Assembly: GCA_965198065.1 (NCBI GenBank)
Contig: CBDAON010000004.1
Location: 2,752,001 to 2,816,000, forward strand
Direction: 5' to 3'
Length of the DNA stretch: 64,000 nucleotides
DNA from: Longimicrobiales bacterium
Lineage (GTDB): Bacteria; Gemmatimonadota; Gemmatimonadetes; Longimicrobiales; Gaopeijiaceae
Below the pieces are notes generated by a model, which saw only the letters and a program-made list of their open reading frames with translations, had not been told where the DNA came from and made no database searches. Position numbers and translations under genes: made by a program. Below, one piece after another: positions 11,368 through 38,175 of this stretch (position 1 is its first letter; each line of letters begins with the position of its first letter).

Positions 11368-11531
11368 CCTTCGACCTCAACGATGTAGAGAATCTTGTCC
11401 ATGGGGACTGCCGCAACTTTGTGTTTGTCCTTGTAGAACACCGTGGACGAGGTGGTTTCCTTGAAGTCGTCGGCGTCGACGATCAGTTCTTTCTTTTCGC
11501 CATTGGCGAACACGATTCGGTAGGTAGACAT
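11364..11531 (-). CDS. 55-aa hypothetical protein (MSTYRIVFANGEKKEL...)
   Basis: Protein-like composition; its ATG overlaps the transposase start. Confidence 0.55.
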   Translation of the reverse strand: MSTYRIVFANGEKKELIVDADDFKETTSSTVFYKDKHKVAAVPMDKILYIVEVEG

Positions 11532-21634: not shown

Positions 21635-24103
21635 CTACGGGCTCTGGAACGGGTTCGACACCGGATCAGCTGGCTCGATCACGCGCACGGTCCGGCCCCG
21701 TCCGTCCACGACCGTCACGGGCACTCGGAGGACGTCGTCCCCGAGGGGGGTGACCCCCTCGAGACCACCCTCGTACGCTCCGGCGACTGGCAGGGTGTAC
21801 GGATCGGCGGCTTCCTCGTTCACGGAGTACCCGAGATCGGCGAGGGAAGCGGCGGTGACCCGGCTCAGCGGGAGCACGGACGAGGTGATGAACCCGATCA
21901 TGAGTTCCTCAACGAAGACCGAGCCGCGCCAGTGGCTGTCCCGCGTCCCCGTTCCTCCCAGGGCGTTCTCGACCGGAACCTTTTGACCGAGGGTGTAGAT
22001 CGATCCTCCCACCACGTCGAAGGCGGCGATGGCTCGCACGCCGTTGAAGTGGGTGTCCGCGCCCGGCTCCTGGGTGGACGGGTTCTGGAGCAGCCCGAGG
22101 GCGCGCCATCTCGTCCCGAACCCCAGGGCGTGCGCCATCTCGTGGAGCACGACGACGTCCAATCGACCGCTCGCGATCAGATTGTCCAGGTCCGACTCGT
22201 CCAAGCGAACGCTTGCCAGCACCGGAAGCCCACTGCCGTCCCGGTTGAAGCAGGGGCCCGCCTGCGCCAACGCACCCCCCGGGCCGTCGATGTTCTGCAC
22301 GATTCCGAAGATGTAGACGTCGTCGAACGTCGCCGTCATGGCCTCGGGGTTTCCGCAGCCGGAATTCGCGGGCACGGTCAGCGTCACGTCGGGCAGCTTT
22401 TCGGTGATGATCTGTGCCCACCGCGCGGCCGCATCGGCGAAAGCAATCTCCAGCTCCGCGCTCATTCCTCCCACGAGCTCGAACCCGATATGGAATCCCC
22501 CACCCGGTGCGGGGGAGGCCGTCGCCGTGAACGCGACCGACGCCTCCGCGGCCGTGGCGGTGACGCGCTGCTGGCCCGTGGTGCCGCCAAGCGTCCAGGT
22601 CGTCTCGGCGAGACCGTCGGCCTGGCCGGTCGCGCTGGCTGGAGCGACCGTTCCCGATCCCGGGTCCGGGGTGAATTGCACGGGAACGCCCGGAACGGGG
22701 TTTCCGAACGAGTCCGTGACCCTGACTGCCAGGAGAACCGAAAGGGCTTCCCCCGGCGGGCCCGTCTGGCCATCCCCCGAGACCCTCTGGAGAGCTTCGG
22801 CCGGCCCCGGGAGCCCGGTCGCGACGAAGACGACGGAAACACCGCCGAAGGCGGACGCCCTGACGGTGTTCTGACCGGCCACCGTGCCCAGGATCCACGC
22901 TGCCAGCCCCACGAAGCCGGACGCGTCGGTGGTTGCCGACAGCTCCGGGGCGGACCCTTCCGGCTGGGCCCCGGGGGGCCCCTGGACCGACCCGTTCCCC
23001 GATTCGACGGTGAACGTGACCGGGGCGCCGGCAATCGGGACGCCCCCCTCATCTAGCAGGCGGATCACCGGTGGATCCGGGGCCGGCTGCCCCACCGTGC
23101 CCGTCTGATCGGCGGGGGCCTCCGCCCTGAGCTCCCCGGGCACGGGGAAGGCCGTGGCCGAGAACTCCAGGGGGGGGAGCCCCGAAGCGGATGCCCTCAG
23201 AGTCTGCACTCCGAGCAGCTCGCCGAGCGTCCACAAGGCGGACGCCCGTCCGTCCTCCCCGGTCTCGCCGGACGCGGCGCTCGCGCTCCCTCCTCCGGTC
23301 GTCACCTCGAAGCTCACGGGCGTGCCCTGAACCGGGTTGCCAAAGCGATCGAGCAGACGGACCACGATCTCGTCCGGAAGGGTGCCCCCCCGCACGAACG
23401 CCTGACCGTCTCCCGAATCCTTGACGAGCGAGGTCGGCGCTCCGGCGCGAGCCAGCGCGTGGATCTCGGTCGAGAGATGCGCGGCTCCCACCACGCTGAC
23501 CAGGAACACCTGCGGAGTGAGCGCGACCTGACCGAGCCTCCACTCGGTCTCGGCGATTCCTCCGGGGTCCGTCGAGGCCGGCGAGGGACTGACGGTTCCC
23601 CCTCCCGAGAGAACCGTGAACGAGATCTCCGCGCCCTCCACCGGCTGGCCCAGGCGGTCCTCGAGCCGAAAGCGCAGCTCGAGCGGAAGCAGCTCTCCCG
23701 CCACGCCCTCCTGATCGTCTCCCGCGAGCACCTCAAGCTTCGCCGGAAGCTGAAACACGGACACGGCGACCGTTCGTGCCGCGGATCCGGCCGCCGCCAC
23801 CACGGACGTATTCCCCTCGCCGGTCGAGGTGACCACCCCGGCCGATGTGACCTGCGCGACCATAGGGTCCAGGGAGCTCCACGACACGTCCAGGTCCGTC
23901 ATCGGGCTGCCGTTCTGGTCCAGGACCTCGACCTCGAGCGCTTTCGAATCCTGGAGGGCGTCGAAGGGGAGGGCCGCGGGCGTGACGACGATCGTCGTGG
24001 GCTCCCGTCGGGGCTCGGATCCGAGATCGCACCCCGCGAAGACCAGTAGGGAGAGGACGGTCGCGGGAAGGGGTCCGAACGATGGACGACGGTGCCGGCT
24101 CAT
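21635..24103 (-). CDS. Lipoprotein with Ig-like (Big) repeats and a leishmanolysin-like M8 Zn peptidase domain
   Basis: Lipobox FAGC, SGDGQ repeats, HEMAHALGFG, SHW, ELM. Confidence 0.85.
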   Translation of the reverse strand: MSRHRRPSFGPLPATVLSLLVFAGCDLGSEPRREPTTIVVTPAALPFDALQDSKALEVEVLDQNGSPMTDLDVSWSSLDPMVAQVTSAGVVTSTGEGNTSVVAAAGSAARTVAVSVFQLPAKLEVLAGDDQEGVAGELLPLELRFRLEDRLGQPVEGAEISFTVLSGGGTVSPSPASTDPGGIAETEWRLGQVALTPQVFLVSVVGAAHLSTEIHALARAGAPTSLVKDSGDGQAFVRGGTLPDEIVVRLLDRFGNPVQGTPVSFEVTTGGGSASAASGETGEDGRASALWTLGELLGVQTLRASASGLPPLEFSATAFPVPGELRAEAPADQTGTVGQPAPDPPVIRLLDEGGVPIAGAPVTFTVESGNGSVQGPPGAQPEGSAPELSATTDASGFVGLAAWILGTVAGQNTVRASAFGGVSVVFVATGLPGPAEALQRVSGDGQTGPPGEALSVLLAVRVTDSFGNPVPGVPVQFTPDPGSGTVAPASATGQADGLAETTWTLGGTTGQQRVTATAAEASVAFTATASPAPGGGFHIGFELVGGMSAELEIAFADAAARWAQIITEKLPDVTLTVPANSGCGNPEAMTATFDDVYIFGIVQNIDGPGGALAQAGPCFNRDGSGLPVLASVRLDESDLDNLIASGRLDVVVLHEMAHALGFGTRWRALGLLQNPSTQEPGADTHFNGVRAIAAFDVVGGSIYTLGQKVPVENALGGTGTRDSHWRGSVFVEELMIGFITSSVLPLSRVTAASLADLGYSVNEEAADPYTLPVAGAYEGGLEGVTPLGDDVLRVPVTVVDGRGRTVRVIEPADPVSNPFQSP

Positions 24104-24127
24104 GGGCGTACGATCCTGGAGGGTCCA

Positions 24128-24167
24128 CAAAAAGGGGATGCCCGGGGGTCGACCCCCGGGCACCCCC
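24128..24167 (-). terminator. Intrinsic terminator after the PAL-like operon
   Basis: GGGG-TGCCCGGGGGTCGACCCCCGGGCA-CCCC hairpin followed by a U5 tract on the minus strand. Confidence 0.75.
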
Positions 24168-24193: not shown

Positions 24194-25399
24194 CTACATT
24201 CCGGCAGCCATGGGCCAGGTGGAGCCCTGGTCCCTGGGCACCCTCTGAACCCCCATGTACACGAACTTGTGGAGTCGACGGCCCTCGTACGTCTCGGTGA
24301 CGTAAACGTTCCCCTGGGAGTCCGCCGTCATGCTGTGCGCGGCCTGGAACATCCCCACGTAGCGCCCACCCGTTCCGAAGGTCCCCACCTCCTCCATGCT
24401 CGCCCGGCGGACGATGTGGATGCGGGAGTTCTCCCCGTCCGCCACGTACAGCCAGGTTTGCTCGGCGTCTGGTGAGAAGGCGACGTCCCACACGGGCCCG
24501 TCGCTCACCGTCTTGGGGTTGAAGTACTGCTCCGTCACGTATGTCCCGTCGAGTCGAAAGACCTGGACCCGAGCGTTTCCACGGTCGCAGACGTACACGA
24601 ACCCGTCGTTCGACGGGTCGGCGCAGTGCACGGGCCCCTGGAATCCGCGCTCCCTCGCCACCGACGCGTCGTAGCCCATGGCAGGGTTCCTAGGCATCGA
24701 ATACTCGAAGTCGTCGTTCGGAGGCTCGCCGTATGCGCCCCAATACCGCTTGATCTGTCCCGAGTCGATGTCCACCACGGCCACGCGCCGATTGCCGTAG
24801 CCATCGGCGAAGTACGCCTCGTTCGCATCGAGGTCGAACTCCACGTCGGCGACCTGGCCGAAGTGGTCCATCGCGTGGCTGTCCGAGGCTTGTCCGGGAA
24901 TGCCGTAGGTCCGGATGTAGCTGCCGTCGTTCGTGAACACCACCACGTGCGAGTCACCGCCTCCGTTCCCGCCGATCCAGACGTTCCCCTCGTCGTCCAC
25001 CTCGAGCCCGTGGTTCGAGGAGGGCCACACATACTCGTTCGTCGGAGAGGGACCTCCCCACGCCTGCACCACGTTCCCCTCGCGATCGAACTGGATCACG
25101 GGCGGGGCGGAGGTGCAGCACTCCGCGATCGGCGGATCCAGGTCCGCCCCCGCCTCGGGCCCGGTGACGCCTCGATGCACGATATAGATGTTGTCGTTTG
25201 CGTCCGCGTCCACGCCGATCACCGTTCCCATGACCCAACCGCTCGGCATGGGCTTCGGCCAGAACGGGTCGACCTGGAACGCCGGAGCGTCGATCATCTG
25301 TTGGCTGACCACCGCCTCGAGCGCCACCTGTCCGATGCCCAGGAGCGCCACCGCGGCTACGAGAGCTCCACCGAAGATCATCCTGCGACGGCTGCTCAT
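24194..25399 (-). CDS. Peptidyl-alpha-hydroxyglycine alpha-amidating lyase (PAL)-like NHL propeller, catalytic residues intact
   Basis: SNHGL, ADGYGN, PVHC, CDRGNARVQ, AAHSM. Confidence 0.8.
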   Translation of the reverse strand: MSSRRRMIFGGALVAAVALLGIGQVALEAVVSQQMIDAPAFQVDPFWPKPMPSGWVMGTVIGVDADANDNIYIVHRGVTGPEAGADLDPPIAECCTSAPPVIQFDREGNVVQAWGGPSPTNEYVWPSSNHGLEVDDEGNVWIGGNGGGDSHVVVFTNDGSYIRTYGIPGQASDSHAMDHFGQVADVEFDLDANEAYFADGYGNRRVAVVDIDSGQIKRYWGAYGEPPNDDFEYSMPRNPAMGYDASVARERGFQGPVHCADPSNDGFVYVCDRGNARVQVFRLDGTYVTEQYFNPKTVSDGPVWDVAFSPDAEQTWLYVADGENSRIHIVRRASMEEVGTFGTGGRYVGMFQAAHSMTADSQGNVYVTETYEGRRLHKFVYMGVQRVPRDQGSTWPMAAGM

Positions 25400-25436
25400 A
25401 TCGATTCTCCGTGTTGGGGATCTCACTCGGCTCGGC

Positions 25437-26657
25437 TCACAACTCGCCGGCGGGCCACACCGGACCCTGATGCTGGGCCGTGACGGCCCCCATGCCCCGG
25501 TTCAGGAACAGCTGGATCCTGCGGCCCTGACCGTCCTCAGCGGTATAGACGTTGCCCGCGGCGTCCACCGCGACGCCACCCAGCTCACGGAAATGGCTGG
25601 GGTAGCGACCGCCGACGCCGAAGCTGGTCCGGACCTCGAGGGATTCCCGGTTCACGATGTCGACCCGCTGGTTCATTCCGTCGGCCACGTACATGAACCG
25701 CTCGTCCGGCGAGAACGCGATATCCGTCACCGATCCGTCTCCGAGCGTCTGCGGAGCGATCACCACCTCGTTTACGTAGGTGCCGTCCGTCTCGAAGAGC
25801 TGGATGCGGTTGTTGCCCTGGTCGCACACGTATACGAGGTCGTCCGCCACCGCGACGCAACTCACGGAGCGGAACTGCTGGGCCGGTGGCGCCGCAGGGT
25901 CGTACGGAGGAAGCACATCGTCGCTCGGCGCGTTTCCATAGGCGCCCCAGACCGCCGTGATCTGGCCCGACTCGACGTCCACGACGGCGACCCGGTTGTT
26001 TCCGAATCCGTCGGCGACGTAGACGACGTCTCCGTCGAAGGCGAAGTCGTTCGCCCCGGCGAAAGCCGACATGCTCGAGTTCATCCTCGTGGCCCCGCCC
26101 GCCTGGCCGTACGTTTCCAGGTGCTGGCCCGTCCGCGAGAACTTGAGGACGAAGCCGTCGAACTGTGGAGTGGGGGGTGGGCCCGCCGGAGCGCCGCCGC
26201 CGCGACCGCCGCGACCACCACCCGCCACCGGAACTGGACCGCCGCCGATCCAGACATTGCCGTCGGGATCGATCGCGATGCCGCGGGGGCTCGCGGGCCA
26301 TGGATAGCCGTTGTCGGGTCCGCCCCAGGAGCGCACCAGGCTCCCATCGGGAGCGAACTCCAGCACGGCCTGCGAGTACCGGCAGCAGTTGCTGGTGCTC
26401 CTCTCGACGTTCAGGTCGGCGGAGCCACCGAAAGCGGCCTGATCGTAGCGCGTGACAATGAGGATGTTCCCGTCGGGCGCCACCGTCAGCCCCGACACCG
26501 GCCCGAGAATGTTCGGATACTCGAGCGGCATAGGCCAGAACGGGTTCACTTCCAAGATCGGGACCTGCCCGTCGTCGGCACCGGCACATGCGACGCTCGA
26601 AACCACGAGGAGCGCTGCGGCTGCGCGGCCCACGATCCGACTGCGCCTCCCCTGCAT
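25437..26657 (-). CDS. PAL-like NHL propeller paralogue lacking the catalytic residues (lipoprotein-like signal)
   Basis: SPRGI, ADGFGN, SVSC, CDQGNNRIQ, ELGGV at the equivalent positions. Confidence 0.78.
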   Translation of the reverse strand: MQGRRSRIVGRAAAALLVVSSVACAGADDGQVPILEVNPFWPMPLEYPNILGPVSGLTVAPDGNILIVTRYDQAAFGGSADLNVERSTSNCCRYSQAVLEFAPDGSLVRSWGGPDNGYPWPASPRGIAIDPDGNVWIGGGPVPVAGGGRGGRGGGAPAGPPPTPQFDGFVLKFSRTGQHLETYGQAGGATRMNSSMSAFAGANDFAFDGDVVYVADGFGNNRVAVVDVESGQITAVWGAYGNAPSDDVLPPYDPAAPPAQQFRSVSCVAVADDLVYVCDQGNNRIQLFETDGTYVNEVVIAPQTLGDGSVTDIAFSPDERFMYVADGMNQRVDIVNRESLEVRTSFGVGGRYPSHFRELGGVAVDAAGNVYTAEDGQGRRIQLFLNRGMGAVTAQHQGPVWPAGEL

Positions 26658-26905
26658 GGACGTTCTCCTTGTGCGCGTGTGAATCCAGCCCATGTCGGAA
26701 TCTGGTCGATGAGGCCGAACTCCGCACCGATCATAGTATGCTTGACCCTGAACGCCGTCCAGAGTCGACCGGCGGCGTGGAGGGGTCCGCGAGCCGGGCG
26801 GAGGCGGGCTCGCGCTTGACCGTTCTTTCCCCACGCAGCTAGTCATTGCGGCGCCCAGGGGGAAGGTGTCAGACTGGCCTCACGCACGACGCGAAGGGGG
26901 TCGGA

Positions 26906-27384
26906 ATGAAGCGACAGGCGATCGTCGGGGGCCTGCTGGGCGCCGCCTGTCTTCTGGGGGCCGAGGGCCTCGAGGCCCAGGATCCCCGGATGAACTTCTT
27001 TGTCATGCCGGTGGGGTCGCAGGTCAACGGGCCACCGGTCCGGGTGAGCGACAACCACTGCCAGACGGAAGCGTACGCGATCGGGTTCGGTAGCGACCTG
27101 AGATGGCGCGCGTACATGACCGGGCGCGCGGAGGACGGGGAAGGAAATCAGGTGGCTCGGGACCGCATCGGATCGGGCCCATGGTACAACTACTATGGAG
27201 CGATGATTGCCGAGAACCTCGCCCAGCTACACAGCGACGAGAGCAACCTCGACCCATCGACTGCGATCACCCTTACCGGTGACTTCGTTCCTCGGGAGCT
27301 GCTCACGGTGCCCGCGGGCTCCGCGCTAATGGGCGAACCTTCTCCGGAGAAGGCGCCTCCTTCTGCTTCGGGGTGCCCGGCTGA
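26906..27384 (+). CDS. Secreted endostatin/C-type-lectin-fold-like protein, apparent 1-nt frameshift near 27328
   Basis: MNFFV, DNHCQ, WRAYM, ARDRIGSGPWYN; the shifted frame ends in FCFGVPG*. Confidence 0.6.
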
Positions 27385-27456
27385 TCATACCCTTGATCAT
27401 CAGGCCCGCTGGCCCTCGGGGCCCGCCGGTGGCGGTGTCCGGGCCTGACGAAACCC

Positions 27457-27486
27457 TTGTCCCGTAGGCTTCGTCGGTCCTATAAT
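27457..27486 (+). promoter_or_regulatory. sigma70-type promoter of monooxygenase copy 1
   Basis: TTGTCC-N18-TATAAT. Confidence 0.55.
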
Positions 27487-27536
27487 GTTACAAGCTCCGG
27501 TAGTCTGTTCACCGATCGCTCGGAGGAGGCGAAACC

Positions 27537-28883
27537 ATGGAAGGCGCGCGGCTGCATCGATGGACGCTCGTGCTTACGATCGCGGCGACCGCGGCGCTTG
27601 GAGAGGCCCTCTCCGCGCAGATGACCGACGGGCAGGTCACGTTTGCGGAGGACGTCGCCTCCATCATCCAGGAGAACTGCCAGATCTGCCACCAGCCGGG
27701 TGGGATTGGGCCGATGGCGCTCAGGAGCTATGAGGAGATCCGTCCGTGGGCTCCGATGATCCGCGAGAGGGTCGCCAGCCACACGATGCCTCCCTACGCG
27801 TATGACAGGGACGTAGGCATCCAGGATCTGCAGCAGGACTGGCGGCTTTCCGAGGAAGAGATCCAGACGATCGTGGCCTGGGTCGATCAGGGTGCGGCGC
27901 TAGGCGATCCGGCGAACCTGCCTCCGCCGATCCAGCTTGCGAGCGCGGATGATTGGAGGATGGCCGCCGAGTTCGGACCTCCGGACATCGTGGTCGGCAC
28001 GCCGGGGATCGAGGTGCCGGCGGCCGGGAACGACATGTGGTATTCGCCGATCATGCCGACGGACCTCGCGGAGGAGCGCTGCATCAAGGCGCTGCAGGTG
28101 AAGCCCGGGGCCGGCAACGCGAAGTCGGTCGTCCACCACGCGAACTCGAGCTTCCAGCTCCTGCAGGAGGACGGCACGTACGAGAGCGCGGGTCGCTCGA
28201 CAGAGTACGCGATGGGCAAGTTCGGTGAGATCCTGCCTGAGGGCACGTGCCGGACGATTCCCGCGGAGGCGTGGGTCTCCTGGTCCATCCACCTCTTCCC
28301 CGGTGGGGTCGGAGGAGGCGCGACGGGCGAGGCGATCGACGGCAACATCGTCGAGCTCGGCATCTGGCTGCACCCCGCAGATTACGAGTGGGAGCACAAG
28401 CAGACTCTGTCGCTCTACGGGGGCCGCGAGGGGGAGTTGGTCATGCCTCCGCACGGTACGGCCATGACGCTCGGGTATCACTCGTTCGACACCCCGGTGC
28501 GGATCGACCAGTTCCAGCCCCACGGGCACCTGAGGCTGCTCCACGCGTCGCTCGAGGTCTTCTATCCGGAGACCGGGGAGACCGAAGTGATCAGCATGAT
28601 CACGAACTGGAGCGCCACGTGGCATCACAGCCACATTTATGGCGACGACTCGGCCCCGCTCGTTCCGGCGGGCGCGATTCTGATCGTCAAGCAGTGGTAC
28701 GACAACACGGTCAATCACCCGAACAACCCCGACCCGGATCAGTGGGTCGCGGGCGGGAGCCGGACGGCCGACGAGATGTCGCACGCGTGGATCGGGATCA
28801 CGCACCTGGACGAGGAGGGCTACGAGAGACTTCTCGCCGAGCGTGAGGGACGCCAGGACACGGTCGCGCAGGCCGGGAACTGA
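27537..28883 (+). CDS. Haem-c-fused copper type II (PHM/DBH-like) monooxygenase, copy 1
   Basis: Signal peptide, CQICH, VVHHAN, SIHLF, QPHGH, DEMSH. Confidence 0.8.
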   Translation: MEGARLHRWTLVLTIAATAALGEALSAQMTDGQVTFAEDVASIIQENCQICHQPGGIGPMALRSYEEIRPWAPMIRERVASHTMPPYAYDRDVGIQDLQQDWRLSEEEIQTIVAWVDQGAALGDPANLPPPIQLASADDWRMAAEFGPPDIVVGTPGIEVPAAGNDMWYSPIMPTDLAEERCIKALQVKPGAGNAKSVVHHANSSFQLLQEDGTYESAGRSTEYAMGKFGEILPEGTCRTIPAEAWVSWSIHLFPGGVGGGATGEAIDGNIVELGIWLHPADYEWEHKQTLSLYGGREGELVMPPHGTAMTLGYHSFDTPVRIDQFQPHGHLRLLHASLEVFYPETGETEVISMITNWSATWHHSHIYGDDSAPLVPAGAILIVKQWYDNTVNHPNNPDPDQWVAGGSRTADEMSHAWIGITHLDEEGYERLLAEREGRQDTVAQAGN

Positions 28884-29025
28884 TCGACGGAAGGCACAGC
28901 AGTTGCCGAGAAGTCTGGAGTCATACGATGGGGATCGAAGGAGTCGCCTGAGCTGCCTCGGGTCCTTCGGTCCCCGTCGTTCTGTGTCAGCGTGCGTTAA
29001 GTGCGCGCCGGATAAGGAGTTCCTC

Positions 29026-29982
29026 ATGACCCGGTTTCGTTCCACCCGCGGCGTGACGATGGTCGCGCTTCTCCTCTGTGCTGGCTCCGCAGTAGCGGAG
29101 GCCGCGGAGGCCCAGGCAATGCCCCTTCGGCCCAATCCGCTGAATGGATACGTGATCGCGCCGTTCATGGAGGGGTGGTACGACAACGGCGACGGGACGT
29201 ACACGATCTCGTTCGGCTACCTCAATCGGAACGAAGACGTTGTCGAGATTCCTGTTGGCGAGAACAACTTCATCGAGCCGGCGCAGTTCGACGGGATGCA
29301 GCCGACGGTGTTCGATACCGGACATCCGCGGGGGATCTTTACCGTGACGCTTCCGGCGGGCATGGCCGAGACGGACGTGTGGTGGACGATCCGTTACCCG
29401 GACGGCGAGGAGGCGCGTGTGCCGGGGCGTATCGGCTCCGGGGCGTATCAGCTGGACTACTTTCCGCGGCCCCACGGCACGGTGGCCCCGGTCATCTGGT
29501 TCGAGGAGGGTGGTGAGACCGGACAGTGGCCGGCCGGGGTCGCGTCGAGCAGTGTGGAGACGACGAGCGTAGGGGAGCTTCTCACCCTCACGGTGAGCGG
29601 GGAGGACGTGTCCGAACGCGATCCGGAGGACACACGCGTCGAGGAGGGGCCCATCGCGCTCACGTTTACATGGGCCAAGCACCAGGGTCCCCCGGGCGAG
29701 GTCGAATGGGTACGGCACCCCTCGACTCCAATACCCGAGCCCGATCCCCCCGACGGCAGGGCGGGCGGACCCGGTGGTGGAGACGACGACGAGCCCCCCC
29801 CTCCCGAAGTTATCACGCTCGAGGAGGGGAGTGGCACGGTGCTGGTCCAGGCTCGTTTCAGCTCGCCCGGCGTGTACTTGCTTAGGGTCCGGGCGGACCA
29901 GTTCGGTTCGGCCACCGACAGCGGCGCCGGAGGGCAGTGCTGCTGGACGAATGGCTATGTAACGGTCTCCGTGACCCCCTAG
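29026..29982 (+). CDS. Secreted hypothetical protein with a C-terminal QCCWTNGY motif, copy 1
   Basis: RBS, signal peptide, paralogous to 34978-35955. Confidence 0.8.
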   Translation: MTRFRSTRGVTMVALLLCAGSAVAEAAEAQAMPLRPNPLNGYVIAPFMEGWYDNGDGTYTISFGYLNRNEDVVEIPVGENNFIEPAQFDGMQPTVFDTGHPRGIFTVTLPAGMAETDVWWTIRYPDGEEARVPGRIGSGAYQLDYFPRPHGTVAPVIWFEEGGETGQWPAGVASSSVETTSVGELLTLTVSGEDVSERDPEDTRVEEGPIALTFTWAKHQGPPGEVEWVRHPSTPIPEPDPPDGRAGGPGGGDDDEPPPPEVITLEEGSGTVLVQARFSSPGVYLLRVRADQFGSATDSGAGGQCCWTNGYVTVSVTP

Positions 29983-30022
29983 GGGGGGCCGCCCGGCTCG
30001 AAAGCTTGGTAAGTACAAAGTG

Positions 30023-30051
30023 TTGTGCACCAGCGCGGGCCAGCTTATAAT
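30023..30051 (+). promoter_or_regulatory. sigma70-type promoter of copy 2
   Basis: TTGTGC-N17-TATAAT, conserved with copy 3. Confidence 0.6.
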
Positions 30052-30174
30052 GATGCATTATGCAGCGTTCCGTCGACCGATCGATTTCGAATCGGCTGCC
30101 GGAGGGCGGTGGTGTAGTGTAAAATACGCTTACGTGGTTTAGTGTTTCACCCTTCGCTTCGGAGGAGGCGCAAC

Positions 30175-31530
30175 ATGGAAGGCACGCGGCTGCATCGATG
30201 GACGCTCGTGCTTACGATCGCGGCGACGGCGGTGCTCGGAGAGGCCCTCTCCGCGCAGATGACCGACGGGCAGGTCACGTTTGCGGAGGATGTCGCCACC
30301 ATCATCCAAGAGAACTGTCAGATCTGCCACCAGCCGGGTGGGATCGGGCCGATGGCGCTCAGGAGCTATGAGGAGGTCCGTCCGTGGGCTCCGATGATCC
30401 GCGAGAGGGTCGCCAGCCACGAGATGCCTCCCTACGCCTATGACAGGGACATCGGCATCCAGGATCTGCAGCAGGACTGGCGGCTTTCCGAAGAAGAGAT
30501 CGCGACGATCGTGGCCTGGGTCGATCAGGGCGCGGCGCTAGGCGATCCGGCGAACCTGCCTCCGCCGATCCAGCTTGCGAGCGCGGATGAGTGGAGGATG
30601 GCCGCCGAGTTCGGACCTCCGGACATCGTGGTCGGCACGCCGGGGATTATCGAGGTGCCGACGGCCGGGAACGACATGTGGTATTCGCCGATCATGCCGA
30701 CGGACCTCGCGGAGGAGCGCTGCATCAAGGCGCTGCAGGTGAAGCCCGGGGTCGGCAACGCGAAGTCGGTCGTCCACCACGCCAACTCGACGTTCCAGCT
30801 CCTGCTGGAGGACGGCACGTACGAGCGGGCGGGTCGCTCGACAGAGTACGCGATGGGCAAGTTCGGTGAGATCCTTCCTGAGGGCACGTGCCGGACGATT
30901 CCCGCGGAGGCGTGGGTCTCCTGGTCCATCCACCTCTTCCCCGGTGGGGTCGGGGGAGGCGCGACGGGCGAGGCGATCGAGGGCAACATCGTCGAGCTCG
31001 GCATCTGGCTACACCCCGCGGATTACGAGTGGGAGTACAAGCAAGATCTGAACTCTTACTCAGCACAGAGGAGCGGTGGGGAGCTGGTCATGCCTCCGCA
31101 CGGCACGGCCATGACGACCGGGTATCACTCGTTCGACCACCCGGTGCGGATCGACCAGTTCCAGCCCCACGGGCACCTGAGGCTGCTCCACGCGTCGCTC
31201 GAGGTCTTCTATCCGGAGACCAGGCGGACCGAAGTGATCAGCATGGTCACGAACTGGAGCGCCACGTGGCATCACAGCCACATTTATGGCGACGACTCGG
31301 CCCCGCTCGTTCCGGCGGGCGCGGTTCTGATCGTCAAGCAGTGGTATGACAACACGGTCAATCACCCGAACAACCCCGACCCGGATCAGTGGGTCGCCGG
31401 GGGTAGCCGGACGGCCGACGAGATGTCGCACGCGTGGATCGGGCTTACCCACCTGGACGAGGAGGGCTACGAGAGACTTCTCGCCGAGCGTGAGGGACGC
31501 CAGGACACGGTCGCGCAGGCCGGGAACTAG
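30175..31530 (+). CDS. Haem-c-fused copper type II monooxygenase, copy 2
   Basis: Same motifs as copy 1; GGAGGAGG RBS. Confidence 0.8.
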   Translation: MEGTRLHRWTLVLTIAATAVLGEALSAQMTDGQVTFAEDVATIIQENCQICHQPGGIGPMALRSYEEVRPWAPMIRERVASHEMPPYAYDRDIGIQDLQQDWRLSEEEIATIVAWVDQGAALGDPANLPPPIQLASADEWRMAAEFGPPDIVVGTPGIIEVPTAGNDMWYSPIMPTDLAEERCIKALQVKPGVGNAKSVVHHANSTFQLLLEDGTYERAGRSTEYAMGKFGEILPEGTCRTIPAEAWVSWSIHLFPGGVGGGATGEAIEGNIVELGIWLHPADYEWEYKQDLNSYSAQRSGGELVMPPHGTAMTTGYHSFDHPVRIDQFQPHGHLRLLHASLEVFYPETRRTEVISMVTNWSATWHHSHIYGDDSAPLVPAGAVLIVKQWYDNTVNHPNNPDPDQWVAGGSRTADEMSHAWIGLTHLDEEGYERLLAEREGRQDTVAQAGN

Positions 31531-31665
31531 AGGCGCGCGACGAAGGTCGTTCTTCTCCGTCGTCGAAGTCTCGGGATGGGGATCGAGGGAGCTCTCCCTC
31601 GGTCCCCATCCTGCTTTTGCGCCACTCTTGCGTGTCCTGCCCAGCAGCTTGGTAAATACCAACTG

Positions 31666-31694
31666 TTGCGTAGTAACGCGGGCCAGCCTATACT
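31666..31694 (+). promoter_or_regulatory. sigma70-type promoter of copy 3
   Basis: TTGCGT-N17-TATACT. Confidence 0.6.
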
Positions 31695-31824
31695 GATGCA
31701 TTGTGCAGTCGTCCGTTGATCGATCGCGTCTCGGATCGGTCGGCCGGATGGCGGTGGTGTAGTTTACAATACGGTTACGTGGTGGTTTAGTGTTTTTACC
31801 CCTCGCTTCGGAGGAGGCGAAACC

Positions 31825-33177
31825 ATGGAAGGCACGCGTTTGCATCGATGGACGCTGGCGCTTGCGATCGTGGCGACCGCGGTGCTCGGAGAGGCCCTCT
31901 CCGCGCAGATGACCGACGGGCAGGTCACGTTTGCGGAGGACGTCGCCTCCATCATCCAGGAGAACTGTCAGATCTGCCACCAGCCGGGTGGGATTGGGCC
32001 GATGGCGCTCAGGAGCTATGAGGAGATCCGTCCGTGGGCTCCGATGATCCGTGAGAGGGTCGCCCGCCACGAGATGCCTCCCTACGCGTATGACAGGGAC
32101 GTGGGCATCCAGGATCTGCAGCAGGACTGGCGGCTTTCCGAGGAAGATATCGCGACGATCGTGGCCTGGGTCGATCAGGGCGCGGCGCTGGGCGATCCGG
32201 CGAACCTGCCTCCGCCGATCCAGCTTGCGAGCGCGGATGATTGGAGGATGGCCGCCGAGTTCGGACCTCCGGACATCGTGGTCGGCACGCCGGGGATCGA
32301 GGTGCCAGCGGCCGGGAACGACATGTGGTATCGGCCGCAGATGGAGACGAACCTCGCGGAGGAGCGCTGCATCAAGGCGCTGCAGGTGAAGCCCGGGGTC
32401 GGCAACGCGAAGTCGGTCGTCCACCACGCCAATTCGTCGTTCCAGCTCCTGCAGGAGGATGGCACGTTCGAGAGCGCGGGTCGCTCGACCGAGTACGCGA
32501 TGGGCAAGTTTGGTGAGATCCTGCCTGAGGGCACGTGCCGGACGATTCCCGCGGAGGCGTGGGTCTCCTGGGACATCCACCTCTTCCCCGGTGGGGTCGG
32601 AGGAGGCGCGACGGGCGAGGCGATCGAGGGCAACGTCGTCGAGCTCGGCATCTGGCTGCACCCCGCGGATTACGAGTGGGAGTATAGGCAGACTCTGTCC
32701 TCCTATGGGGACAACGGACCTTCAGGAGAGCTGGTCATGCCTCCCCACGGCACGGCCATGACGATCGGGTATCACTCGTTCGACCACCCGGTGCGGATCG
32801 ACCAGTTCCAGCCCCACGGGCACCTGCGGCTGCTGCACGCGTCGCTCGAGGTCTTCTATCCGGAGACCGGGGACACCGAAGTGATCAGCATGGTCACGAA
32901 CTGGAGCGCCACGTGGCATCACAGCCACATTTATGGCGAGGACTCGGCCCCGCTCATTCCGGCGGGCTCGGTTCTGATCGTCAAGCAGTGGTACGACAAC
33001 ACGGTCAATCACCCGAACAACCCCGACCCGGATCAGTGGGTCGCCGGGGGTAGCCGCACGGCCGACGAGATGTCGCACGCGTGGATCGGGATCACGCACC
33101 TGGACGAGGAGGGCTACGAGAGACTTCTCGCCGAGCGTGAGGGACGCCAGGACACGGTCGCGCAGGCCGGGAACTGA
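31825..33177 (+). CDS. Haem-c-fused copper type II monooxygenase, copy 3
   Basis: Same motifs as copy 1. Confidence 0.8.
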   Translation: MEGTRLHRWTLALAIVATAVLGEALSAQMTDGQVTFAEDVASIIQENCQICHQPGGIGPMALRSYEEIRPWAPMIRERVARHEMPPYAYDRDVGIQDLQQDWRLSEEDIATIVAWVDQGAALGDPANLPPPIQLASADDWRMAAEFGPPDIVVGTPGIEVPAAGNDMWYRPQMETNLAEERCIKALQVKPGVGNAKSVVHHANSSFQLLQEDGTFESAGRSTEYAMGKFGEILPEGTCRTIPAEAWVSWDIHLFPGGVGGGATGEAIEGNVVELGIWLHPADYEWEYRQTLSSYGDNGPSGELVMPPHGTAMTIGYHSFDHPVRIDQFQPHGHLRLLHASLEVFYPETGDTEVISMVTNWSATWHHSHIYGEDSAPLIPAGSVLIVKQWYDNTVNHPNNPDPDQWVAGGSRTADEMSHAWIGITHLDEEGYERLLAEREGRQDTVAQAGN

Positions 33178-33400
33178 TCGACCGGAGGTCGTAGCGTAGT
33201 TGCTGGTAGTTGATAGAAGTCGGGAGTTGCACGATGGGGACCGGAGGAATCGCTTGAGTTGACTCGGGTGGTTCGTCGGTCCCCATCCGTTCTTTTTCGG
33301 GTGCGCACAGGGGCCAGACCCTGCTCGAGGGGGTCCAGAAGGCGCGTTCCGGGCTGCCATGGGGCTCGGATCGCGCCTTCCGTTCACGCGCACGTGACTC

Positions 33401-33430
33401 TTGTGGCCTGGGCGGTGTCGAGCCTATAAT
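33401..33430 (+). promoter_or_regulatory. sigma70-type promoter of copy 4
   Basis: TTGTGG-N18-TATAAT; the leader resembles that of copy 1. Confidence 0.55.
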
Positions 33431-33480
33431 GCTACCATTCGTGGCAGTCTGTTCTGCATTCGGTTCGAGGAGGTGCAGCC

Positions 33481-34848
33481 ATGGGGGGGACGCAAGTGCA
33501 TCGGTGGGCGCTAAGGTGCCTCGGAGCGGGCACTCTGGCCGGCGCGGGGACGATCTTGCTCGGAGGGAACCTCTCCGCGCAGATGACCGGCGGGCAGGTC
33601 ACGTTTGCGGAGGACGTCGCCACCATCATCCAGGAGAACTGTCAGATCTGCCACCAGCCGGGTGGGATCGGGCCGATGGCGCTCAGGAGCTATGAGGAAA
33701 TCCGGCCGTGGGCTCCGATGATCCGTGAGAGGGTCGCCAGCCACCAGATGCCTCCCTACGCGTATGACAGGGACATTGGCATCCAGGATCTGCAGCAGGA
33801 CTGGCGGCTTTCCGAGGAAGAGATCGCGACGATCGTGGCCTGGGTCGATCAGGGCGCGGCGCTGGGCGATCCGGCGAACCTGCCTCCGCCGATCCAGCTT
33901 GCGAGCGCGGATGAGTGGAGGATGGCTGCCGAGTTCGGACCTCCGGACATCGTGGTCGGCACGCCGGGGATTATCGAGGTGCCGACGGCCGGGAACGACA
34001 TGTGGTATTCGCCGCGGATGCCGACGAACCTCGCGGAGGAGCACTGCATCAAGGCGCTGCAGGTAAAACCGGCGACCGGCAACGCGAAGTCGGTCGTCCA
34101 TCACGCGAACTCGAGCTTCATGCTCCTGCAGGAGGACGGCACGTTCGAGCGAGCGGGTCAATCGACAGAGTACGCGATGGGCAAGTTCGGTGAGATCCTT
34201 CCTGAGGGCACGTGCCGGAAGATACCCGCGGAGGCGTGGGTCTCCTGGTCCATACACCTCTTCCCCGGTGGGGTCGGGGGGGCCGCGACGGGCGAGGCGA
34301 TCGAGGGCAACATCGTCGAGCTCGGCATCTGGCTGCACCCCGAGGATTACGAGTGGGAGTACAGGCAGACTCTGTCGCTCTACGGGCGCAACCAGGGGGA
34401 GTTGGTCATGCCTCCTCACGGCACGGCCATGACGACCGGGTTTCACTCATTCGACCACCCGGTGCGGATCGACCAGTACCAGCCCCACGGGCACCTGCGG
34501 CTGCTGCACGCGTCGCTCGAGATCTTCTATCCGGAGACCGGGGACACCGAAGTGATCAGCATGATCTCGAACTGGAGCGCCACGTGGCATCACAGCCACA
34601 TTTATGGCGAGGACTCGGCCCCGCTCGTTCCGGCGGGCGCGATTCTGATCGTCAAGCAGTGGTACGACAACACGGTCAATCACCCGAACAACCCCGACCC
34701 GGATCAGTGGGTCGCCGGGGGTAGCCGCACGGCCGACGAGATGTCGCACGCGTGGATCGGGCTTACCCACCTGGACGAGGAGGGCTACGAGAGACTTCTC
34801 GCCGAGCGTGAGGGGCGCCAGGACACGGTCGCGCAAGCGGGGAACTGA
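33481..34848 (+). CDS. Haem-c-fused copper type II monooxygenase, copy 4 (different signal peptide)
   Basis: Same motifs as copy 1. Confidence 0.8.
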   Translation: MGGTQVHRWALRCLGAGTLAGAGTILLGGNLSAQMTGGQVTFAEDVATIIQENCQICHQPGGIGPMALRSYEEIRPWAPMIRERVASHQMPPYAYDRDIGIQDLQQDWRLSEEEIATIVAWVDQGAALGDPANLPPPIQLASADEWRMAAEFGPPDIVVGTPGIIEVPTAGNDMWYSPRMPTNLAEEHCIKALQVKPATGNAKSVVHHANSSFMLLQEDGTFERAGQSTEYAMGKFGEILPEGTCRKIPAEAWVSWSIHLFPGGVGGAATGEAIEGNIVELGIWLHPEDYEWEYRQTLSLYGRNQGELVMPPHGTAMTTGFHSFDHPVRIDQYQPHGHLRLLHASLEIFYPETGDTEVISMISNWSATWHHSHIYGEDSAPLVPAGAILIVKQWYDNTVNHPNNPDPDQWVAGGSRTADEMSHAWIGLTHLDEEGYERLLAEREGRQDTVAQAGN

Positions 34849-34977
34849 CTCACAGGGAGTTGTCTCTTTTGGGGTTGGAGTTGCACTATGGGGGCCGAAG
34901 GAGTCGCCTGAGCTGCCTCGGGCCCTTCGGTCCCCGTGTTGTTTGTTAGCCTGCGCTGCACGCGCAAAGGAGTCTCC

Positions 34978-35955
34978 ATGAAGCGGTCTCGCACAACCCG
35001 TGGCGTGGTGGCGGTTACGCTCCTCCTCTGCGCCGGCTCGGCGCTGGAAGAGGCCCTGGAAGCCCAAGCCATGCCTCTCCGACCCAATCCGCCGAGCGGG
35101 TACCCGATCGCCCCGTTCTTGGAGGGGTGGTACGACAACGGCGACGGGACGTACACGTTCTCCTTCGGCTATCTCAATCGGAACGAGGACGTTATCGAGA
35201 TCCCCATCGGCGAGGACAACTTCATCGAGCCGGCGCAGTTCAACGGGATGCAGCCGACGGTGTTCGACACCGGACATCCCCGGGGGGTCTGGACTGTGAC
35301 GCTTCCGGCGGACATGGCCGGAACGGACGTGTGGTGGACGATCCGGACCCCCGACGGCCTGGAGGCGCGGGTGCCAGGGCGGCACACTGCCGCCGCGTAC
35401 CAGCTGGACAAATATCCGCGGCCGCACGGCACGGTGGCCCCGCTCGTTTCGTTCGAGGAGGGTGGTGACACCGGTCAGTATCCGTCCGGGATCGTGTGGG
35501 ACGGCACGCAGCAGGCGAGGGTCGGGGAGCTCCTGACGCTCTCGGTGAATGTGCAGGACATATCCGTTCGCGATCCGAACGACCCCCGCGCCCCGGATGA
35601 GCCGCCATCGATCACGGCGACGTGGTCCAAGCATCAGGGTCCGCCGGGCGAGATCGAATGGGTCCGACACCCGTCGACTCCGGAGCCCGAGCCACCGGAG
35701 GACGACGGGCGCGCGGGAGGCGCCGGCGGTCGTGGGGGGGGAGGTGGGTTTGGACGCGGTGGCGGTCCTCCGCCTCCAGAGCGTATCGAGGTCGACGGGC
35801 CCGGCGGTACGGCGCTCGTACAGGCTCGCTTTCCCGCGCCCGGCGAGTACCTGCTCAGGGTCCAGGCGGACCAGTTCAGCTCGGCCCGGGACAGCAGCGG
35901 GGGTGACCAGTGCTGCTGGACGAACGGGTACGTGAGGGTCGTCGCGACCCCGTAG
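34978..35955 (+). CDS. Secreted QCCWTNGY protein, copy 2
   Basis: Paralogue of 29026-29982. Confidence 0.8.
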   Translation: MKRSRTTRGVVAVTLLLCAGSALEEALEAQAMPLRPNPPSGYPIAPFLEGWYDNGDGTYTFSFGYLNRNEDVIEIPIGEDNFIEPAQFNGMQPTVFDTGHPRGVWTVTLPADMAGTDVWWTIRTPDGLEARVPGRHTAAAYQLDKYPRPHGTVAPLVSFEEGGDTGQYPSGIVWDGTQQARVGELLTLSVNVQDISVRDPNDPRAPDEPPSITATWSKHQGPPGEIEWVRHPSTPEPEPPEDDGRAGGAGGRGGGGGFGRGGGPPPPERIEVDGPGGTALVQARFPAPGEYLLRVQADQFSSARDSSGGDQCCWTNGYVRVVATP

Positions 35956-36036
35956 GCGCGCCCACGGGGATGGACGCGGGAAGTAAGTGAGTGTGTGAGC
36001 AAGTTGTCCAGTCCTAACGTCTCAGGGAGGAAAACC

Positions 36037-38106
36037 ATGGTTCCGGACCGCGCCGTATGGCGAAGCCTCGGTCCCCTCGCCTGTATGGTCGCGGCGTGGC
36101 TCGTGCTACCGCTCGGGCCCGTCGAGGGGTCGGCGCAGGATCGAGGGTCTCCGTTTGGAGAGTGGCGTTACCAGAGCGGGGAAGCGTGGGGGACGCGCTA
36201 CTCGCCACTGACGCAAATCAACGCGTCGAACTTCGAGAACCTAGAGATCGCCTGGCTGTTCCGTGGAGACAACTTCGGGCCGAACATCTCGACGCAATCG
36301 CGCTCGACGCCCGTGTACGTGGACGGGAAGCTGTACACGGTGGTGGGATACCGGCGGCAGGTGGTGTCACTGGATCCGGGGAACGGGGAGATTCTGTGGA
36401 CGTTCCGGGAGCCGGACACGGAGCGGTTCCACCGCTCGATGCGGGCGAACTACGGCAAGGGTGTAGCGTACGGAGAGCTCGATGGCCGCGGGGTCATCTA
36501 CATCACGACGCCGGCGTTCTTCCTATGGGCGCTGGATGCCGAGACCGGGCAGCCGCTGGAGAACTGGGGGACGCCGGTGCCGCTACCGGGGTGGCCTCAG
36601 ACGGGCGTGGTGGACCTGCTCCCGGACCTGATTGCGGACTGGGGTCCATGGCAGAATTGGGGCGAGCCCTACGACCCGGACTACGGGATCCCGCGTGAGC
36701 TGGGCTACATCACGAACTCCTCACCGCCGATCGTGGTGAACGGGGTGGTGGTGGTCGGAAACTCGGCGGAGCAGGGCTACAACCAGACTCGGATCGAGAA
36801 CGTGCCGGGCGACATCCTGGGCTACGACTCGGGCACGGGGGAGTACATGTGGAAGTTCCACATGATTCCCAGGCCCGGGGAGTTCGGGCACGACACGTGG
36901 GAGAACGATGCCTGGGAGTGGACGGGTGACGTCTCTTCTTGGTCGCCCATGGCGGCCGACAACGAGCGGGGGATCGCGTACTTCGCGACGAACCCGCCGA
37001 CGATCGACTACTTTGGTGGATTCCGGCCGGGGGCGAACCTGTTCGGCACGAGCATCATGGCGCTGAACGTGCAGACGGGCGAACGGGTGTGGCACTTCCA
37101 GACGGTGCACAACGACCAGTGGAACTACGACATGCCGAACGTCCCGATCCTGGCGAACCTGAACGTGCCAGGGCAAGGGGAGATCCCGGCGTTGATCCAG
37201 ACGTCTAAGCAGGGGTTCATCTACACGTTCAACCGCGAGACCGGTGAGCCGGTGTGGCCGATCGAGGAGCGGCCGGTCCAGCAGACCGAGGTACCGGGCA
37301 ACTGGACGTCGCCTACGCAGCCGTATCCGACGAGGCCGGAGCCGTTCGAGGAAGTGACGATGGGAGGGCTCACGAACAACCCGGACCGGATCATCGACTT
37401 CACGCCCGAGCTGAGGGCGGAGGCGATGGCGATCCTGGAGAACTACCGGGTCGGCGGGCCGTACATGCCGCGCCTGTACGTAGGGCATGACGCGGGGGTG
37501 GAGGCCAACATCCGCTGCTCCGGCGGGCTCAACATCGGACATCCCGCGGTCTTCGACCCGACGACGAACACGCTGTACGCGTCGCACGGACCGGGATGTG
37601 GTGGAGGGTTCGTCATGCCGGGAATCGAGGCGGACGTGGCGGACGATCCGGGCACGACCGGGACCACGATCTCGGAGTGGGTGGCGGGACCCGGCGGCGG
37701 GCTGCCGCAGGTGCAGGGGCTTCCGATATGGAAGCCGCCCTACAACCGGCTCTCCGCGTACAACATGAACACCGGGGATCGCATGTGGTGGATCCCGATC
37801 GGTGAAGTGTCCGAGCAGATCCGGGACAACCCGGTCCTCCAGGGCGTGGACACCTCGCAGTTTGGAGGCGGGGGCAGCGCGGTCATGATGGTCATGGGCG
37901 ACCTGCTGCTCACGACGGGGTTCAGCGAGCCCGTGCTCCAGGCCCACGACAAGCGCACGGGTGAGGTGGTCGGCAGGGTCGACATTCCCGTCGAGGGTTC
38001 GTACGGGATGATGACGTACATGTACGACGGCGCGCAGTACGTGGTCGTGCAGATCGGGGGGTCGGAGTACCCGAGTTCCCTGGTGACGCTCAGGCTGGAC
38101 AACTAA
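36037..38106 (+). CDS. Secreted PQQ-dependent dehydrogenase-like protein (paralogue of 4914-6962)
   Basis: TRYSPLTQIN, NSSPPIV, HNDQWNYD, PTQPYP. Confidence 0.85.
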   Translation: MVPDRAVWRSLGPLACMVAAWLVLPLGPVEGSAQDRGSPFGEWRYQSGEAWGTRYSPLTQINASNFENLEIAWLFRGDNFGPNISTQSRSTPVYVDGKLYTVVGYRRQVVSLDPGNGEILWTFREPDTERFHRSMRANYGKGVAYGELDGRGVIYITTPAFFLWALDAETGQPLENWGTPVPLPGWPQTGVVDLLPDLIADWGPWQNWGEPYDPDYGIPRELGYITNSSPPIVVNGVVVVGNSAEQGYNQTRIENVPGDILGYDSGTGEYMWKFHMIPRPGEFGHDTWENDAWEWTGDVSSWSPMAADNERGIAYFATNPPTIDYFGGFRPGANLFGTSIMALNVQTGERVWHFQTVHNDQWNYDMPNVPILANLNVPGQGEIPALIQTSKQGFIYTFNRETGEPVWPIEERPVQQTEVPGNWTSPTQPYPTRPEPFEEVTMGGLTNNPDRIIDFTPELRAEAMAILENYRVGGPYMPRLYVGHDAGVEANIRCSGGLNIGHPAVFDPTTNTLYASHGPGCGGGFVMPGIEADVADDPGTTGTTISEWVAGPGGGLPQVQGLPIWKPPYNRLSAYNMNTGDRMWWIPIGEVSEQIRDNPVLQGVDTSQFGGGGSAVMMVMGDLLLTTGFSEPVLQAHDKRTGEVVGRVDIPVEGSYGMMTYMYDGAQYVVVQIGGSEYPSSLVTLRLDN

Positions 38107-38135
38107 CGAGCCAGCGGGGCCAAGAGCGCAGTGGG

Positions 38136-38175
38136 GAAGCCCCCCGGGGACGGAAGTCCTCGGGGGGCTTCTTCG
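38136..38175 (+). terminator. Terminator closing the monooxygenase/PQQ cluster
   Basis: GAAGCCCCCCG..CGGGGGGCTTC hairpin followed by TTCGT. Confidence 0.7.

Follow-up and report, generated by a model that had tools for sequence, protein, structure and literature searches.

Introduction

In animals and green algae, peptidylglycine alpha-hydroxylating monooxygenase (PHM) and the amidating lyase PAL are the two halves of the bifunctional enzyme PAM. PHM and dopamine beta-hydroxylase (DBH) are regarded as eukaryotic enzymes (PMC8812541), and an active bacterial PAL is known from Exiguobacterium (PMC9155641). We analyzed a 64,000-nucleotide stretch of DNA (the window; positions 2,752,001 to 2,816,000 of contig CBDAON010000004.1, assembly GCA_965198065.1) from a Longimicrobiales bacterium, the host genome of which (G000) is 3.05 Mb long and 87.6% complete. 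Between positions 24194 and 38106 it holds four genes, M1 to M4, that encode secreted proteins with a heme c domain and a dicopper core, two genes for a partner protein, U, and two PAL-like genes, NHL1 and NHL2. The MdgH/MdgL pathway of methylguanidine demethylation is another bacterial case of hydroxylation followed by cleavage with a dedicated lyase, but it differs in using a 2-oxoglutarate/Fe dioxygenase and a lyase without sequence homology to PAL (PMC12508155). Our literature search, with subscription papers and bioRxiv supplements outside its scope, returned no description of a bacterial heme-fused PHM/DBH-like enzyme.

M1 to M4 belong to the PHM/DBH superfamily by fold and ligands, are neither PHM proper nor DBH, and represent a real, uncharacterized, and widespread variant. 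We observed directly the fold, the metal ligands, the heme motif with its axial Met, an altered substrate pocket, tight linkage to U, and loose linkage to PAL.

Results

M1 to M4 are heme-fused members of the PHM/DBH superfamily

The M proteins are 88 to 93% identical to one another, and M1 is 448 amino acids long. Each copy carries CQICH, MPP (with the axial Met), VHHA, IHLF, and QPHGH...DEMSHAW. Among 68 diverse homologs, C48, C51, H52, M84, H200, H252, H329, and H331 were invariant, and H201 and M414 were kept in 67; given this conservation, the motifs in M1 to M4 are not due to chance. A first-pass annotation, made from the sequence alone, had listed the genes of this locus and had read CxxCH and both copper motifs in four of their products, and both observations were confirmed. 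The fused heme c that it proposed was also borne out, since an N-terminal CxxCH with a distal axial Met is typical of a class I cytochrome c, the His/Met pair is invariant in 68/68 homologs, and PF00034 was matched at its cut-off.

The copper core was more difficult to detect. Pfam (where a weak cytochrome c match was the sole result for M1 to M4), NCBIfam, PDB sequence searches with M1, and a close-homolog profile all missed it, and it was revealed only by a diverse profile and by the fold. PF01082 and PF03712 had no match in M1 to M4, and relatives matched PF03712 at or near the cut-off. The profile built from the 68 diverse homologs retrieved DBH (E 1.5e-10) and PHM (E 1e-7) at the sequence level, aligning H200/H201/H252 with PHM H107/H108/H172 and H329/H331/M414 with H242/H244/M314. 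An AlphaFold model of M1 (mean pLDDT 78) showed a helical N-terminal domain followed by two beta-sandwich domains, the two tandem jelly rolls that define the superfamily. Human DBH and rat PHM ranked at the top of a Foldseek search with this model, DBH first (E 1e-11 to 1e-8). A wide structural search gave PHM (1sdw) at Z 16.7 (root mean square deviation of 3.9 over 248 residues) and DBH (4zel) at Z 13.9, with the next unrelated fold at Z 7.5; the N-terminal domain resembled monoheme PccH (Z 6.7). The PHM/DBH fold and two sets of copper ligands that had been claimed for these proteins are therefore supported by both the structure match and the profile alignment.

Like rat PHM (PHMcc; 1sdw, 1opm, 1phm), the M proteins have a double jelly-roll core, equivalents of the CuH His3 and CuM His2Met sites, and a secretion signal (judged by eye). 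Unlike PHM, to which they are about 14% identical, they have an N-terminal cytochrome c, a dedicated partner, and no PAL fusion. They share the core with DBH and tyramine beta-hydroxylase (4zel; Foldseek E 1e-11), as well as a Gln placed two positions ahead of the first CuM His, but they differ in other pocket residues, in the absence of a dimerization domain (448 amino acids), and in carrying a helical cytochrome c where those enzymes have a DOMON domain, which is absent from M1.

The family comprises 10,695 representatives at 50% identity (E up to 0.001), labeled merely "cytochrome c domain-containing protein," and other members carry redoxin or EF-hand domains. A broad M profile matches 13 sequences in G000, of which eight share at least 79% identity with M1, and the genome also has PF01578 genes, which fit the context of Sec export and heme attachment. 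Very large expansions were seen in G194 (32 profile matches), G204 (16), and G131 (at least 15). The closest named relatives are in assemblies of Gemmatimonadota (Longimicrobiales) and Pseudohongiella-type Gammaproteobacteria. Contigs of 150 to 1,175 bases from RNA runs match parts of M, NHL1, and U1 at 90 to 99% identity, which is no proof of transcription, its level, or habitat.

The substrate pocket differs from that of PHM and defines two clades

PHM binds the C-terminal carboxylate of its substrate through Arg240, with Tyr318 and Asn316 (PMC12164859). In all four M copies these positions are Gln327, Trp418, and His416, and the PHM residues Tyr79 and Gln170 are replaced by Trp and by Ser or Asp. 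The combination Q327/R409/H416/W418 occurred in 160 of the 161 members of the window's cluster, and DBH likewise has Gln at the Arg240 position. These replacements argue against peptide amidation by M1 to M4, one of the two activities that the first-pass annotation had offered.

We built a tree with 121 representatives drawn from an alignment of 356 sequences; those with less than 75% coverage were dropped, and no eukaryotic sequences were included. An Arg409 clade (support 0.95) contains every intact U-linked sequence in the tree. Pseudohongiella-family genomes supply a second clade (support 0.98), whose members carry a redoxin domain at the N terminus and retain the equivalents of Tyr79, Arg240, and Tyr318, and mostly of Gln170. 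This redoxin-fused subfamily, which has Arg240 and Tyr318 and lacks Asn316, is a better candidate than M1 to M4 for a true bacterial peptidylglycine hydroxylase, judging from its residues. No member of the Arg240/Tyr318 type was present among the 13 G000 matches, nor was one seen in the 30 host-phylum loci listed.

The redoxin, cytochrome c, and PHM-fold architecture is seen in L116:6052-7782 and about 25 like genes (L102-L155, L307-L317), which in Pseudohongiella-family genomes often adjoin HupE/UreJ, PAL, and CstA genes. Other redoxin-type copies (L011:5230-6948 and 20 similar; L313, L316, L318-L324) lack both CuM histidines (R-x-R-M-N) and keep Arg240, Tyr318, CuH, and the heme motif; they are often divergent from U-M arrays. 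These conserved pseudoenzymes are possibly substrate sensors or electron carriers.

Divergence among seven close paralogs in G000 is concentrated at residues 286 to 300, where amino acid change (pN) was 0.26 versus 0.04 overall, with further hot spots at residues 203 to 222 and 161 to 180. The 286-300 strand aligns with PHM L206-M208, and residues 289 to 294 align with the PHM 203-208 strand, which we take to line the side chain pocket. The closest neighbor among these paralogs switches along the gene. We infer that this pattern probably reflects pocket diversification, with gene conversion elsewhere.

U is the sole fixed companion of M

U adjoins M in 57 of 77 M-centered loci. In 120 other genomes of the phylum, a full-length close M was present in 14, and U was found in exactly those 14, adjacent each time. 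U is the sole fixed companion of M and, from this pattern, likely a bound partner. U1 and U2 had no Pfam or NCBIfam match, in agreement with their earlier description as unknown secreted paralogs, and their Atlas entries are hypothetical proteins only, most often from Acidobacteriota. A model of U2 (pLDDT 86) has two Ig-like sandwiches. No structural match was clear: the best reached Z 9.9 over 109 residues and the rest were generic Ig-like folds, a result that shows neither novelty nor absence. U also conserves two His residues, several Arg residues, and the CCW at its C terminus.

The locus joins two gene groups

The features of the locus are as follows.

24134..24167, minus strand: terminator-like hairpin 3' of NHL1, with a 15-pair stem and a T run
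24194..25399, minus strand: NHL1, a PAL-like NHL propeller of six blades that retains the complete PAL signature R76/H130/Y201/H258/R273/H355
25437..26657, minus strand: NHL2, degenerate PAL paralog with signature R,R,F,S,Q,G and a lipoprotein-like signal (by eye)
26906..27448, plus strand: lectin-like secreted protein gene; relatives have a weak DUF1554 match
27537..28883, plus strand: M1, signal peptide (by eye), class I cytochrome c, and PHM/DBH-fold dicopper core
28927..28980, plus strand: hairpin in the M1/U1 interval
29026..29982, plus strand: U1, secreted partner with two Ig-like beta sandwiches (the model is of U2) and a conserved C-terminal CCW
30175..31530, plus strand: M2, 93% identical to M1
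31572-31613, ~33232-33290, and ~34890-34938, plus strand: hairpins 3' of M2, M3, and M4, respectively
31825..33177, plus strand: M3, 93% identical to M1
33481..34848, plus strand: M4, 88% identical to M1
34978..35955, plus strand: U2, second partner copy, 68% identical to U1
36037..38106, plus strand: pyrroloquinoline quinone (PQQ)-dehydrogenase-like propeller of the glucose/quinate type with a WNYD motif, below NCBIfam cut-offs
~38133..38174, plus strand: terminator-like hairpin 3' of the PQQ-like gene

The order is thus NHL1 and NHL2 on the minus strand, diverging as previously described from lectin-like, M1, U1, M2, M3, M4, U2, and PQQ-like genes on the plus strand, and all ten products have a signal-like N terminus by eye. 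The terminators noted earlier at both ends are present, and hairpins also follow each M copy. Because each copy has a hairpin after it and a TATAAT-like hexamer 5' of it, the M array looks like several transcription units, or duplicated units, rather than a single operon. A sigma-70 scan found 1 site versus 1.6 expected, so the promoters are leads only.

Directly downstream of NHL1, positions 21635-24163 (minus strand) encode an Ig-repeat lipoprotein-like protein with a leishmanolysin-like M8 metallopeptidase domain, a putative secreted peptidase that could supply peptides. Transposase-like genes, recognized from their translations, lie at 11530-12414, 50138-51363, and 56793-58018, and two of them are apparently identical. 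Elements akin to these flank other M copies in G000, which suggests that single M genes are mobile. At G000:C4:301904-303569, a distant M paralog is broken into two open reading frames by a stop or frameshift and adjoins U and an intact copy.

NHL1 retains the PAL residues and NHL2 has lost them

NHL1 aligned with PAL over 227 profile positions (E 5e-16). Its signature residues (listed above) correspond to R533, H585, Y654, H690, R706, and H786 of rat PAL; R533, H585, Y654, and R706 align directly, H690 is off by one column, and H786 is placed by motif only. We take these residues to be the substrate Arg, the three zinc histidines, and the catalytic Tyr and Arg, with Arg533 presumably binding the glycine carboxylate. 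The RHYHRH signature was whole in 84/98 aligned matches of one set and in 95/111 of another. These data support NHL1 as an apparently intact PAL-like enzyme. NHL2 has lost five of the six residues and is predicted to be catalytically dead, so that of the amidating-lyase pair annotated at first, only one member retains the PAL residues.

Of 80 metagenome PAL loci, 14 also hold a degenerate PAL copy, cut short by a contig end in three cases; others occur in L081, L086, and L296. Because such copies recur, the pairing of a seemingly dead PAL with a live one is a recurring design, in which the dead copy is perhaps a heterodimer or binding subunit. NHL1-type genes share the Arg, His, Tyr, His, Arg, His set with PAL but differ from it in being stand-alone, in the frequency of a dead paralog, and in usually lying with a divergent HupE/UreJ gene, the most constant PAL neighbor (18/20 loci of the phylum, 35/40 of the G121 family, and 49/80 metagenome loci). 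The closest NHL1 ortholog we found is in G194 (68% identity), and G000 itself encodes U five times and has six genes of the close NHL1 type.

The HupE/UreJ_2 membrane protein has an N-terminal periplasmic domain (L078-L097, L116-L155) and is encoded in G000 at C4:1472974, unlinked to PAL; it may supply metal to the PAL-like enzyme. G000 also has a second NHL class in which the catalytic Tyr of PAL is His (signature R,H,H,H,R,E or a gap), at C4:2671838, 405665, 695394, 2601900, 2366045, and 534804, with a further site at L309:10042-10950. One such gene lies directly 3' of an Arg240-type monooxygenase. This class is possibly another metal lyase or a lactonase.

The PQQ-like protein lacks the catalytic Asp

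The PQQ-like protein has the PF01011 propeller of the PQQ glucose/quinate dehydrogenases (TIGR03074) and of acido-empty-quinoprotein group A (TIGR04528), but it scored below both cut-offs (249 and 177 bits, respectively) and has no membrane anchor. The Asp of the WD motif is catalytic in PQQ dehydrogenases. The window protein reads DQWNY where type II alcohol dehydrogenase has DAWDY, which puts Asn at that position. In the loci examined, the five relatives that score more than 700 bits carry WN, whereas WD is kept in the lower-scoring ones for which the motif was read. Neither pqqC nor pqqB was found in G000 at its 87.6% completeness, and pqqC was not found in five other genomes; the same search scored over cut-off in five published Gammaproteobacteria. 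The host could also obtain PQQ by scavenging. Some link between PQQ-like genes and M is possible, and close PQQ-like genes abut M in L004, L009, L107, and L252. The proposed re-reduction of the heme by this enzyme, that is, a PQQ-driven reductase role, is nonetheless the weakest part of the first reading of the locus. Two more PQQ-dehydrogenase-like genes lie in the window, at 4914-6962 (plus strand; 52% identical to the 36037..38106 gene) and 15579-17702 (minus strand).

The lectin-like gene is present as first annotated, in a short variant that is frameshifted relative to its G194 ortholog, whose C terminus matches another frame ending near 27384. It is either a pseudogene or the product of an assembly error.

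The hydroxylase and the lyase co-occur in genomes more than they adjoin

As the first-pass annotation had anticipated, monooxygenase and PAL-like genes occur together in other genomes: in the phylum sample, PAL-like genes were present in 15/20 M-positive versus 8/100 M-negative genomes. In the G121 family the counts were 34/38 versus 2/23 at E<=1e-150, a threshold chosen after the scores were seen, and 36/38 versus 15/23 at 1e-50; kin among the genomes are not independent in any of these comparisons. Same-strand M-U-PAL runs were found in L098, L100, and L241, the latter two with the window's enzyme type, and a PAL gene lies no more than 9 kb away from 5 of 178 window-type sequences.

Among the 20 PAL-centered loci of the phylum, which held no U, HupE/UreJ genes were present in 18, PQQ-like genes in 10, and lectin-like genes in 7. 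Because these loci and G194 hold the PAL module without M or U, the window is a local join of a lectin-like/dead-PAL/live-PAL module with a monooxygenase-partner array and not a fixed operon. For window-type enzymes, we found neither a PAM-type fusion nor stable hydroxylase-lyase linkage, and the two were never fused in the loci examined. The parallel with PAM is that relatives of each of its halves exist in bacteria, where they occur together in genomes and in some cases adjoin; the differences are that the halves are separate, that heme probably takes the place of ascorbate, and that the hydroxylase here lacks the glycine clamp.

Redoxin-fused M genes occurred in 33/40 PAL loci of the G121 family. 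Because birA and CstA are as conserved there (31/40 each), this linkage is mostly one inherited locus. A count of 28/29 Arg240/Tyr318 sequences near PAL was set aside as biased, most having been taken from PAL-centered loci. In 20 further loci away from known PAL loci, we found 10 intact Arg240/Tyr318 copies with no close PAL; the redoxin-fused subfamily is therefore often but not always PAL linked. Genes of amide and amine catabolism are among the neighbors of PAL loci: amidohydrolase (9/40), penicillin amidase (7/40), CstA (31/40), creatininase (3/20), and DAO-family oxidase (4/20).

Discussion

The best reading of M1 to M4 is the other activity that the first-pass annotation had offered, oxidative N-dealkylation, acting on another substrate. 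We propose that M1 to M4 are exported, heme-fed monooxygenases that work with U to hydroxylate a nitrogen-containing nutrient other than a glycine-ended peptide, and that the product is split by PAL-like lyases, either NHL1 or others encoded elsewhere in the genome; we consider the chances of this proposal to be about even. M would be exported by Sec and then receive its heme. A periplasmic donor would deliver single electrons to the His/Met heme, from which they would move to CuH and on to CuM, with the heme likely in the place of ascorbate. CuM would activate O2, and the site of hydroxylation would be a C-H bond adjacent to the nitrogen of an amide or amine, or at a benzylic carbon. The resulting carbinolamide or hemiaminal would be cleaved by a zinc-dependent PAL-like enzyme, or would fall apart, to give an aldehyde together with an amide or amine that the cell could take up. 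Recent tandem copies that diverge at the cleft strand (286-300) likely widen the substrate range, and the two joined modules would serve one periplasmic catabolic toolkit.

Several observations weigh against this proposal. A close PAL lies within 10 kb in just 1 of 77 M-centered loci, so that the complete pathway first described here is not conserved as a single locus. Conversely, M was present in 0/20 PAL-centered loci of the phylum and in 9/80 metagenome PAL loci, 6 of which have the Pseudohongiella-family layout. G194, with its 32 M matches, has a lectin/dead-PAL/PAL module with no M or U in the surrounding 60 kb. In genomes with 10 to 32 M genes, chance neighborhood is likely, and the 14 genomes with M and U also carry the lectin-like gene (12) and the PQQ-like gene (8); the co-occurrence of M and PAL could reflect a shared lifestyle, which these data do not separate from a shared pathway. 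The R409-bearing loop is of low confidence in the M1 model. Synonymous change is also raised at residues 286 to 300 (pS 0.32), so the hot spot there is no proof of selection. Finally, ascorbate has a role in PHM beyond reduction (PMC12164859), and heme may therefore not substitute for it fully.

An alternative is a self-contained DBH-like hydroxylase, in which M and U act on aryl-alkylamines or other carbon skeletons and the PAL-like genes, although part of the same lifestyle package, have no connection with it. Gln stands at the Arg240 position as in DBH, DBH is the top Foldseek and profile match, and PAL has its own conserved module with the HupE/UreJ gene and no U and is present without M in 8/100 genomes. 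We regard this account as somewhat unlikely, given that PAL in a genome almost always accompanies M (13/14; 36/38), that M-U-PAL runs are repeated, and that the Glu that follows the HH pair in DBH is Asn in M1. A dedicated PAM-like unit is quite unlikely. In it, M1 to M4 would hydroxylate peptidyl-glycine or N-acylglycine, with Arg409 replacing Arg240 as the carboxylate anchor, NHL1 would free glyoxylate, and the PQQ-like enzyme would re-reduce the heme. Such a unit must contend with the replacement of Arg240, Tyr318, and Asn316 together, with a layout that is not conserved, and with a PQQ-like protein that lacks the catalytic Asp in a genome where, as in five others, pqqC was not found. It does draw support from the adjacency of all its parts in the window, the Arg533 equivalent kept in NHL1 (its carboxylate role being our assumption), the invariance of Arg409 in its clade, the M-U-PAL runs in three other loci, and the PQQ-like genes that abut M in the four loci named above.

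It is very unlikely that the M proteins are copper-handling proteins, oxidases, or electron sinks that reuse the PHM fold with no monooxygenase activity. Pseudoenzyme copies without the CuM histidines (21/48 in one cluster) and the very high copy numbers (32 in G194) would fit such a role, but the His3 and His2Met geometry is exactly retained, and the variation sits in the substrate cleft and not at the metal sites.

How electrons cross the 11-Å gap between the coppers, and the extra role of ascorbate, are still debated (PMC12164859). A single-chain bacterial version with a built-in heme reporter, likely expressible in Escherichia coli, would make this question directly testable, and the heme-fused enzyme could offer an ascorbate-free catalyst. 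The window contributes a four-copy array with cleft divergence, a predicted dead PAL copy, an Asn in the quinoprotein, and residue signatures that split the family into U-linked Arg409 and PHM-like Arg240/Tyr318 clades; these signatures tell which subfamily suits amidation tests and which suits new chemistry.

We can also imagine a large, ascorbate-free, heme-fed periplasmic PHM/PAL chemistry, an idea that we consider possible but doubtful. Dozens of pocket-diversified monooxygenases per genome would act on the nitrogen-linked carbons of dissolved organic nitrogen and share a PAL-like lyase. The redoxin-fused Arg240/Tyr318 subfamily would be a true bacterial hydroxylase of peptidylglycine or N-acylglycine, from which animal PAM likely arose, and the Arg409 clade with its linked U would be a two-subunit version with a new substrate class. 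If the catabolic role that we propose is true, these enzymes would constitute an unrecognized route of organic nitrogen turnover, given the very large size of the family.

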